In this document: positions 44,787-60,321 of the stretch, in pieces
How positions within the stretch are numbered: position 1 is the stretch's first letter
Layout: every line of letters begins with the position of its first letter
NCBI RefSeq assembly: GCF_001677475.2
Contig: NZ_CP015229.1
DNA: 64,000 nucleotides
Reading direction: 5' to 3' (one strand)
Source: Escherichia coli
GTDB taxonomy: Bacteria > Pseudomonadota > Gammaproteobacteria > Enterobacterales > Enterobacteriaceae
Notes under the pieces: model-generated
Seen by the model: the letters and a program-made list of their open reading frames with translations, nothing else
The model's database searches: none
What the model was told of the DNA's origin: nothing
Program-made: the position numbers and the translations under genes

Positions 44787-44927
44787 TCAACGTTTTTTCT
44801 TACGACCCTGAACGGCCTTAAAACGTGGATTAGATTTACAAATCACATATAGCCGTCCTTTTCGCTTCACAATCTGACAGTCTGGATGGCGTTCTTTTGC
44901 GGTACGCAGAGAGTTAAGGACTTTCAT
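44787..44927 (-). CDS. ykgO: 50S ribosomal protein L36 paralogue, zinc-independent type
   Basis: 46 aa [46 protein letters not shown]; start overlaps the ykgM stop by 1 nt. Too short for the ORF track; found by manual translation. Confidence 0.9.
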
Positions 44928-45193
44928 CACGCCCCCTTTTTCGTGCTAACAAAACGACCAAAACGTTGGGTGAATCGTTCAACATTTCCTTCTGATGCCA
45001 CTGTTCTCAGCTTCCCTGTATAGAACGGGTGCGATTTAGAAGAGACATCAATTGTCACGTACGGATACGTTACGCCATCCAGCTCAATCTCCCGGTCTGT
45101 TTTGATAGTCGAGCCGATTTTAAAGTACTCATCAACACTGGTGTCGTGGAACACCACAGTACGATACTCAGGATGGATATTGGGTTTCATCAT
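44927..45193 (-). CDS. ykgM: 50S ribosomal protein L31 paralogue, type B (zinc-independent)
   Basis: 88 aa starting [19 protein letters not shown], no Cys zinc ribbon; Zur box immediately upstream. Confidence 0.92.
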
Positions 45194-45198
45194 TTTTA

Positions 45199-45221
45199 CC
45201 TGTTATGTTATAACATAACCG
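45199..45221 (-). promoter_or_regulatory. Zur box in the ykgM promoter
   Basis: Near-perfect palindrome TGTTATGTTATAACATAAC 6-28 bp upstream of the ykgM start. Confidence 0.85.
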
Positions 45222-45477
45222 TAAAGATACATGCTCATCCGGATCATTTCAACACCCAATCCCTGTGACCCTTTGTGGATGTGGAATTTCCGCAACGGGG
45301 AACTCTGGCATTGTTAGCAGCCATTGGTGACGCTCCCATAAACGCCTGGATGAGTGATTGATGATGGTTTTGCTGAGAGTATGGATTTTTCGAGAATGGA
45401 GGTTATCTCTACTTTACTGGCCGATGATTTATCGCAGTATGATTGATTACCTGACAGCGTGTATTCCTCTCCCACGG

Positions 45478-45622
45478 ATATAATAATTACTTACAAAAAG
45501 GGAGAGGATGCATATTTTAAATATCACTGAAGTGAACAGTTTATTGCCGTTATTAATAGAAATGGAGAAATAAATAGGCGTATTCTACAATTGCGACAAA
45601 AACAACGATATTAATCAGTTTA
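45478..45622. repeat. Intergenic repeat module, split copy, second half
   Basis: Matches 26141-26297 (TATTTTAAATATCACTGAAGTGAACAGTTTATTGCCGTTATTAATAGAAATGGAG...AACAACGATATT). Confidence 0.7.
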
Positions 45623-46135
45623 TGACTGATTTGTTGTACTTTATTCTCTTTCATTGGTACTTCCTCGCTTTAAAAAAGAGTGCACTTCGTAAGTGCCCTT
45701 ATATAAATAACGAGTTTGGTCAACCAATTTTTTGACATGTATCACAAATTTGAATAGATGTATTACATCAACTATCTTTTATTGCACCAACGTCATTGAT
45801 ATATGTCGCCTGAAGTCAGTTCCGGGAATGAGTCTGATCTCAAGATTGGCCCAGTCCTGGCGTTGATTGGCGCTGAGGAGCATATCGCATCTCATCATAA
45901 TGTCGTATCTCCTGGGGTGTTATACAAGATATCGTTGTTGGTGACCTGGGAGAGGAATTGAGTTCTATTAAACCGTCAACTATGCCGGATACATACTGGA
46001 TTACACTGCAGGCACGCCTTATGAGAGAACGTGCCGCAGTGACGGGTTAATTATCTGAAAGAATTTGTGAGGCTGTATCGGTTACTCATTGATTTGATAG
46101 TTTTACTCTCGGGAGAGTAATAGATATTTAATCCA

Positions 46136-46379
46136 TTAACGGAAACCAGTGAGTTCCTTTCGATGTCTGAATTTCCTTGGCGTGACATAGGTATATCCTG
46201 TAATTACTAAACCAATATTTTGTGAGCGACGTTTATAATATTCGAGTTCTTGCTCAGAGATGGTTCCATCAGGATTAGCTGACCAGGTCGTCATAGGAGC
46301 CATAACGATACGATTACATGGCTTTGTTTTTTTCTGTCAGCATAAAAGGAGGAAACAGTGATAAGTGTTTATTTGTCAT
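46136..46379 (-). pseudogene. Old-yellow-enzyme/NADH:flavin oxidoreductase family N-terminal remnant (frameshifted, truncated)
   Basis: Manual translation gives MTNKHLSLFPPFML... then, after a frame change, MAPMTTWSANPDGTISEQELEYYKRRSQNIGLVITGYTYV, resembling the OYE N-terminus (xMAPMT...EYY...GLIIT); stop after about 55 codons. Confidence 0.35.
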
Positions 46380-46672
46380 GACAATACCTCAAATGTTTAT
46401 CTGATTTTGATGCGTATATTTTAACTGGTTAGTTGTTACCAGCTTTGGAACCAAGATTTTTGGCTTTGTTTTTATTTATAATTACTGTTAGTGCTTTTAT
46501 TGAATTTATGGTGGAGAAAAGAGTAAAAAAAGAAAGTTAATGATGTGTGTCAGAATATCGGTAAGAAGAATGACGCAATCGTGAGGATACGTTTATTCAT
46601 AATAAATCTCCTGAAAGTTTAGAATTATTTTCTATACAGCCAGATTATCATTGTTACTAATAATGTGGTTAA

Positions 46673-48616
<1,944 letters not shown>

Positions 48617-59803: not shown

Positions 59804-60321
59804 ATAAAACCGCCAGGAATCGGAGCAAAGATAATCCGCATTCCGGGTGTTGTGAGCCTTTCAGCTATTTATATTTCCAGGTTTTTTATATGTTTTTTTG
59901 AAGTGGTCTGGCTTAGTAATTAAATAAAAGATACAAACTAAATTGCTTCAATTAAATAAAATCCCGACTATTACTTGATACGTGATTATTGTCGGTAATT
60001 TTGTTTGTACACCATCAGTGTATATCTCAATAACCCCTGAATAAGTAGCTCTGAATAGGTATAAGGGATGTAGCCATTTTTAAATGGATTTCTTATGCCA
60101 AAAATGATCGTCGATTTCCCCATAAAATGTGAGCGATGCCGAAAGAAATAAAATTAGTTATTGCATTTGAAGTTTGGATGAAAGATTATCATTTGTCATA
60201 CAAATGAGGGGTGGTATGTTGCTAGCCAATTAAAAAAGAACGCCATATTTATTGATGATTGCTCCCCCGGAAGGGGGGAACCATCGGGCATAAATGGGCA
60301 TGAAGTAATGGAGTATTAGTT

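Follow-up and report, generated by a model that had tools for sequence, protein, structure and literature searches.

A perfect palindrome upstream of ykgM in an Escherichia coli strain is almost certainly the Zur operator of the ykgM-ykgO operon

The window, that is, the whole 64,000-nucleotide stretch of Escherichia coli DNA that was analyzed, carries on its minus strand two adjoining ribosomal protein paralogue genes, ykgM and ykgO, which are preceded by a promoter-like element and an inverted repeat. The features that matter for the analysis of this locus are as follows.

44787 to 44927, minus strand: ykgO, type B L36, 46 aa (Pfam Ribosomal_L36; NCBIfam type B L36)
44927 to 45190, minus strand: ykgM, type B L31, 87 aa (Pfam Ribosomal_L31, E = 3.3e-25; NCBIfam; K-12 and RefSeq annotation)
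45198 to 45200, minus strand: Shine-Dalgarno-like AGG, a putative ribosome-binding site that abuts the operator and lies 7 nt ahead of the ykgM ATG (45190)
45201 to 45220, no strand assigned: 20-bp operator, with near certainty that of Zur, reading TGTTATGTTATAACATAACC on the plus strand and GGTTATGTTATAACATAACA on the minus strand, with its core at 45202-45219
45202 to 45214, no strand assigned: putative recognition element of Zur dimer 1, of the form RNNNYxxxRNNNY (GTTAT-GTT-ATAAC)
45207 to 45219, no strand assigned: putative recognition element of Zur dimer 2 (GTTAT-AAC-ATAAC), offset by 5 bp from that of dimer 1
45224 to 45229, minus strand: -10 hexamer TATCTT of the ykgMO promoter, from a promoter scan, identical in K-12
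45247 to 45252, minus strand: -35 hexamer TTGAAA of the ykgMO promoter, from a promoter scan, with a 17-nt spacer to the -10 hexamer, identical in K-12

Read along the minus strand, the order of these elements is TTGAAA-17 nt-TATCTT-tac-G-GTTATGTTATAACATAAC-AGG-taaaa-ATG-ATG-AAA, which places the operator between the promoter-like element and the start of an 87- or 88-aa ORF. The operator therefore stands on the upstream side of ykgM, and the gap from it to the ykgM ATG (45190, minus strand) is 11 nt. The assignment of the two dimers to their elements is suggested by analogy with the znuABC co-crystal structure, and the dimer motif is taken from PMC4219657.

The identity of the two genes was examined against curated protein families. 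YkgM scored 123.8 bits against the NCBIfam model for type B L31 (NF002462, cut-off 86) and YkgO scored 91 bits against that for type B L36 (NF002021, cut-off 70); both ORFs pass the curated cut-offs, and the ykgM and ykgO calls made in the initial annotation therefore hold. YkgM contains no cysteine and YkgO contains two, without a CxxC pair, a pattern that, as read from the translations, fits the zinc-free "C-" forms described in the literature. The ATG of ykgO overlaps the stop codon of ykgM by one base, and the K-12 coordinates of the two genes likewise share one base. The ORF list puts the ykgM start at the first ATG of an ATGATG (minus strand, 45188-45193), giving a start at 45193 and a product of 88 aa, and both K-12 and RefSeq place it at the second ATG (45190, 87 aa). 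Because the first ATG is not conserved, with AAAATG in E. albertii and ATAATG in Escherichia strain SCPM-O-B-8794 in place of ATGATG, the true ykgM start is likely 45190.

The initial annotation had placed a Zur-box palindrome at positions 45199-45221, which read CCTGTTATGTTATAACATAACCG in the window, and had quoted from it the 19-mer TGTTATGTTATAACATAAC (45201-45219). The palindrome was borne out as an 18-bp perfect inverted repeat, GTTATGTTATAACATAAC, at 45202-45219 upstream of ykgM, with two arms of 9 bp and a spacer of 0, and it is the sole perfect palindrome with arms of at least 9 bp in the 64-kb window. Palindromy alone is insufficient evidence of an operator, because an 18-bp perfect palindrome was present in 24.5% of dinucleotide-preserving shuffles of the window. 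This frequency, roughly one shuffled 64-kb window in four, is also what speaks for reading the repeat as a functionless product of chance, an explanation that has to be weighed against the fit of the site to Zur motifs and against its conservation.

For the motif scoring, a symmetric Zur weight matrix was built from only three K-12 operators (znuC/znuA, zinT, and pliG), which were found in the MG1655 genome via the published E. coli 20-mer pattern, TGWNAYRWTATAWYRTNWCA, and the ykgM site was excluded from its construction. On this independent matrix, the ykgM operator scored 24.5 bits and ranked first among all window positions, with the training sites at 25.6 to 27.8 bits, the maximum possible score at 30.2 bits, and the runner-up non-overlapping site of the window at 11.2 bits. 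The maxima of 200 shuffled windows had a mean of 12.3 bits and a largest value of 20.6 bits, and none of the 200 reached 24.5 bits. The weight-matrix check that had been set beforehand was thus passed on a matrix independent of the site, and refutation by a low score fails. A chance origin is opposed by this rank, by the 0 of 200 shuffles, and by the position of the site on a known Zur-target promoter. Elsewhere in the window, the second-best site on the independent matrix is TGAAAGATTATCATTTGTCA at 60179-60198 (11.2 bits, 3 mismatches to the 20-mer), which is most likely a chance match because its score falls within the range of the shuffle maxima.

The site was further compared with three published descriptions of Zur boxes. 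The skeletal two-dimer motif RNNNYRNNRYNNYRNNNY, derived from the Zur-DNA crystal structure, and the E. coli pattern TGWNAYRWTATAWYRTNWCA both come from Gilston et al. 2014 (PMC4219657). The core GTTATGTTATAACATAAC fits the skeletal motif at 18 of 18 positions, with agreement at all 8 that are specified, and the 20-mer agrees with 45201-45220 at 19 of 20 positions, making this the sole match in the window with two mismatches or fewer. At one mismatch or fewer, 0.01 matches to the 20-mer are expected per window and one was observed (45201-45220); the pattern discriminates only at this setting, since at three mismatches or fewer it is uninformative, with 4 matches found against 2.1 expected. The single mismatch is the C at 45220, on the promoter side, and the validated K-12 operator has the same mismatch; among 239 half-sites flanking the 18-mer in other species, taken from the loci listed, A accounts for 71% at the base matching 45220. 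The classic gamma-proteobacterial 23-bp consensus GAAATGTTATANTATAACATTTC reached at best 16 of 22 positions (6 mismatches), in two registers 5 bp apart, and had no match with three mismatches or fewer in the window. The description of the site as "almost perfect" in the initial annotation consequently stands for the structure-based motifs (18/18 and 19/20) and falls for the classic consensus (16/22). With a match of 16/22, GAAATGTTATANTATAACATTTC is a poor yardstick for the ykgM operator, and the two best registers 5 bp apart are what two dimers would lead one to expect, because the 23-mer describes a one-dimer register. A matrix search of the 23-bp-consensus kind still recovered three Zur-regulated E. 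coli promoters (PMC4219657).

The operator starts 4 nt past the -10 hexamer and thereby abuts the core promoter of the zinc-homeostasis gene ykgM. The combination TTGAAA-17-TATCTT was assigned to ykgMO among the promoters recognized by RpoD holoenzyme alone in genomic SELEX (Shimada et al. 2014; PMC3946193). In the table of the same study, the spacer between ykgMO and ykgR (window 45230-45550) is marked as H-NS-associated, so that H-NS silencing may add to Zur at the ykgMO promoter. Transcription is predicted to start near 45217, about 7 nt past the -10 hexamer and inside the operator; no measured E. coli ykgM transcription start was found in the literature searched. On the far side of the spacer, ykgR (33 aa, 45553-45654, minus strand) is intact in the window, with a hairpin resembling a terminator immediately upstream (45696-45682, minus strand).

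This geometry also bears on the explanation that the palindrome acts in RNA, as a hairpin in the ykgM leader beside the Shine-Dalgarno sequence that would control translation or mRNA stability, instead of or besides serving as a Zur site. A distance of 1 nt separates the end of the box from the AGG, and 11 nt separate it from the ATG; folding from a point upstream of the box gives a predicted 7-bp stem closed by a 4-nt loop. The predicted hairpin, however, is weak (-7 kcal/mol, z = -0.56; equalled or bettered by 50 of 200 shuffles), and its 5' arm would be incompletely transcribed because the predicted start lies inside the box. In other genomes, moreover, the same 18-mer stands at variable distances and in both orientations by unrelated zinc genes, as suits a site in DNA but not an RNA leader. 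Taken together, the RNA explanation is very improbable.

The regulatory region was aligned across the window, K-12, O157:H7, two other E. coli strains, E. albertii, and the divergent Escherichia strain SCPM-O-B-8794. Against K-12 MG1655, the 20-bp operator, the -35 hexamer, the spacer, the -10 hexamer, the AGG, and the ATGATG are identical base for base, and the nearest difference falls in the gap from the -10 hexamer to the operator, where 45222 is C here and T in K-12; a few further SNPs lie upstream of 45222. C at 45222 is shared by strain 1105 and T by ECCRA-119, while O157:H7 has T together with a different neighboring base at 45223 ("gtg"). The 18-mer and the AGG are invariant across the five E. 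coli strains, E. albertii, and SCPM-O-B-8794. Variation in the same alignment is seen in the promoter spacer, in the leader, and in the 2-3 nt that separate the operator from the -10 hexamer. Across a wider sample, the 800 bp around the operator match 5081 of 5426 complete E. coli genomes at 95-99% identity, with ykgL, ykgO, and ykgM as the annotated features under the match. A 40-mer around the operator is matched in 4840 of the 5426 genomes, exactly in 1383 of these 4840 and with 1-2 mismatches in most others. An 18-mer that is invariant amid varying flanks and identical to an experimentally validated operator is hard to reconcile with chance, and together with the matrix scores this makes a functionless palindrome extraordinarily unlikely.

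Several further observations concern the surroundings of the operon. In NZ_JAATUR010000022.1, labelled as E. coli SCPM-O-B-8794, YkgM is 91% identical and the ykgM promoter region has diverged with the Zur box intact; this strain may represent a different Escherichia species or clade. The PLSDB plasmid collection also has the ykgL-ykgO-ykgM segment, Zur box included, on 16 E. coli records, and the 800-bp and 40-mer comparisons likewise gave 12-13 plasmid places. Among the ten records listed of these 16, seven are about 214-242 kb and the others 10.6 kb, 68.5 kb, and 1.2 Mb. The plasmids of about 214-242 kb are mostly of K-12 or cell-culture origin; a mobile, plasmid-borne ykgMO was considered and rejected, as these records are probably F-primes carrying the chromosomal segment. 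Past ykgR, the region 45650-47700 of the window holds short ORFs (46051-46303, minus strand) left over from an NADH:flavin oxidoreductase gene, followed by a LysR-family regulator (46700-47635, plus strand) and an aldo/keto reductase. The counterpart of the oxidoreductase in strain MEI003 is annotated as a frameshifted partial pseudogene. The equivalent position holds ykgP/eaeH/IS3 in K-12 and fdeC in ECCRA-119, and at least 80% of 45650-47700 is covered in just 89 of 5426 E. coli genomes, with an identity of at most 97.7%.

The K-12 counterpart of this regulatory region, PL31p, stands in the same gene order as in the window (ecpR, ykgL, ykgO, ykgM, ykgR), with an identical operator and promoter, and differs from it only by the C/T at 45222 and the few upstream SNPs. 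PMC4219657 credits Panina et al. 2003 with having predicted the Zur site at PL31p. Two Zur dimers bind PL31p in a cooperative, all-or-none manner (Kd-app 0.025e-18 M2), more tightly than any of the other three operators measured; about 30 bp are protected, and repression in vivo is 560-fold (PMC4219657). A ykgM-lacZ fusion rises almost 1000-fold with TPEN and is expressed very highly in a zur::kan background (PMC7297116). The 18-mer string was not found in the text of PMC4219657 or in the wider literature text searched and is presumably given in figures only; that the PL31p probe contained the 18-mer is derived from the K-12 alignment and from the pattern search of PMC4219657, which recovered known Zur-regulated promoters. 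With 24.5 bits, rank 1, no equal in 200 shuffles, and identity to the validated K-12 operator, the reading of the palindrome as a Zur operator in the initial annotation is well supported.

Other known Zur boxes resemble the ykgM operator to differing degrees. The E. coli operators of znuC/znuA, zinT, and pliG, like that of ykgM, align to TGWNAYRWTATAWYRTNWCA with a core of TGTnAynnTATAACA and overlap promoters, whereas they are imperfect palindromes and the ykgM operator is perfect over 18 bp. The Zur box of the hlyII operon in uropathogenic E. coli J96 shares GTTATGTTATAACATA, 16 of the 18 bases, with the last two palindrome bases differing, and it serves a toxin operon instead of the ribosomal protein paralogues of ykgMO; the affinity of K-12 Zur for this box equals or exceeds that for PL31p (PMC5916954). 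The ykgM-rpmJ2 operon of Yersinia pestis is of the same type in a different species and with a different promoter sequence, and there the Zur site was located over the sigma-70 -10 element by primer extension and DNase I footprinting, with repression demonstrated by a lacZ fusion (PMC2706843). The alpha-proteobacterial (Rhodobacter-group) Zur box GATATGTTATAACATATC, a consensus given here as it is quoted in PMC2706843, has the same 9-0-9 architecture and is identical at 16 of 18 bases (2 mismatches). The ykgM operator is closer to GATATGTTATAACATATC than to the textbook gamma-proteobacterial consensus, which is given in the form 11-1-11 and describes a one-dimer register.

To place the core in a wider context, an exact search for the 18-mer was made in one genome per species, covering 100,044 species and 298 Gb. 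At least 120 loci were found against about 4 expected at equal base frequencies, an expectation that is higher in AT-rich genomes. By their record labels, the loci listed comprise about 48 gamma-, 18 beta-, and 44 alpha-proteobacteria, 9 unclassified records, and 1 Brevinema. Neighbors were tallied as the first sizeable ORF reading away on each side, clustered, with one representative per cluster checked against Pfam. In this tally, a gene of a zinc-homeostasis family starts beside the box in 89 of the 120 loci listed, an approximate figure because the ORF calling is crude, one representative stands for each cluster, the loci number at least 120, and the count has no matched control. The families found beside the 18-mer were the following.

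COG0523/CobW GTPases: at least 30 loci
ZnuC-like ATPases: at least 14 loci
Fur-family regulators: at least 12 loci
TonB-dependent receptors: at least 10 loci
ZnuA: at least 8 loci
L31: at least 6 loci, with 3 more L31/L36 loci by tblastn
FolE2: at least 6 loci
ZinT: at least 4 loci
DUF1826: at least 3 loci
ZrgA: at least 2 loci

In the nine L31B/L36B loci among those listed, the box lies 11-37 nt from the first such gene, as it does here. Judged by these neighbors, the tally, approximate as it is, shows the 18-mer to be a marker of Zur regulons well beyond E. coli, in three proteobacterial classes.

The neighbors also include families outside this list, the first four of which do not belong to the classic zinc genes. 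A 445-aa protein without a Pfam match adjoins the 18-mer in at least 4 loci (for example, L007:10563-11897, plus strand), a 321-aa membrane-like protein without a Pfam match in at least 3 (L064:11216-12178, minus strand), a Peptidase_M15_3 protein in at least 4 (L016:350-1126, minus strand), and a YfbR-like 5'-deoxynucleotidase in at least 2 (L025:200-787, minus strand). Peripla_BP_2 binding proteins occur in at least 7 loci, and in some of these a ZnuC-like ATPase lies about 2 kb beyond them. These five families are candidate members of Zur regulons. The only match labelled as non-proteobacterial, among the loci listed, is in a MAG of the spirochaete Brevinema andersonii (L109:388-405), whose flanking ORFs fall in no cluster; this match could be due to chance in an AT-rich genome or to binning contamination.

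The neighbors of the 18-mer bear, in turn, on the explanation that the box belongs to another Fur-family or palindrome-reading regulator, such as Fur, and not to Zur. In favor of this explanation, the boxes of the Fur family resemble one another in size, and all are inverted repeats rich in AT (PMC2706843). The genes beside the 18-mer, however, are zinc genes and not the classic iron-uptake genes, even though TonB-dependent receptors (at least 10 loci) occur in regulons of both kinds. Moreover, the best fit to the Fur 19-mer consensus within 45186-45240 has 9 mismatches of 19, the central TATA sets Zur boxes apart from Fur boxes (PMC4219657), and the K-12 operon is derepressed in zur mutants (PMC7297116, PMC4219657). 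Assignment to a regulator other than Zur thus has a negligible probability, and no evidence against the Zur-operator reading was found in the analysis.

We therefore conclude with very high confidence that 45201-45220 is the operator through which Zur controls ykgM-ykgO. When zinc is sufficient, two zinc-loaded Zur dimers would bind cooperatively on opposite faces of the inverted repeat GTTATGTTATAACATAAC, each reading one RNNNYxxxRNNNY element (45202-45214 and 45207-45219). A footprint of about 30 bp centered at 45210/45211 would cover the edge of the -10 hexamer, the predicted start (near 45217), and the early transcribed region down to the AGG, given that the operator occupies the stretch from 4 nt past the -10 hexamer to 11 nt short of the ATG. 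Zur occupancy would then block initiation by RNA polymerase at the sigma-70 promoter, probably by occlusion. When zinc is scarce, Zur would lose its regulatory zinc and leave the DNA, ykgMO transcription would become several-hundred-fold higher, and cysteine-free L31B together with L36B would replace the zinc-binding L31 and L36 in ribosomes. Zur binding, its cooperativity, the size of repression, and derepression by zur deletion or TPEN have been shown in the literature on the identical K-12 sequence. The strain of the window presumably has a working zur gene; in K-12, zur lies far from ykgM.

The ykgM operator is already known, in that the site, the protein, the affinity, a structure-based model, and the physiology have been published for the identical sequence. 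For the annotation of the window, the site anchors the ykgM-ykgO calls, fixes 45190 as the likely ykgM start, and marks the operon, on the basis of its sequence, as one that would be induced by zinc starvation in this strain. A modest side result, from the cross-species tally, is that the exact core of the E. coli operator is common to the Zur regulons of three proteobacterial classes. We consider it possible, though somewhat short of an even chance, that the 18-mer is the exact optimum of the Zur code kept across alpha-, beta-, and gamma-proteobacteria, and that its sole perfect E. coli copy, on ykgMO, would give this operon the tightest step in a graded zinc response. If the optimum reading is true, the bare 18-mer would be a parameter-free probe for Zur regulons that flags unannotated candidates.
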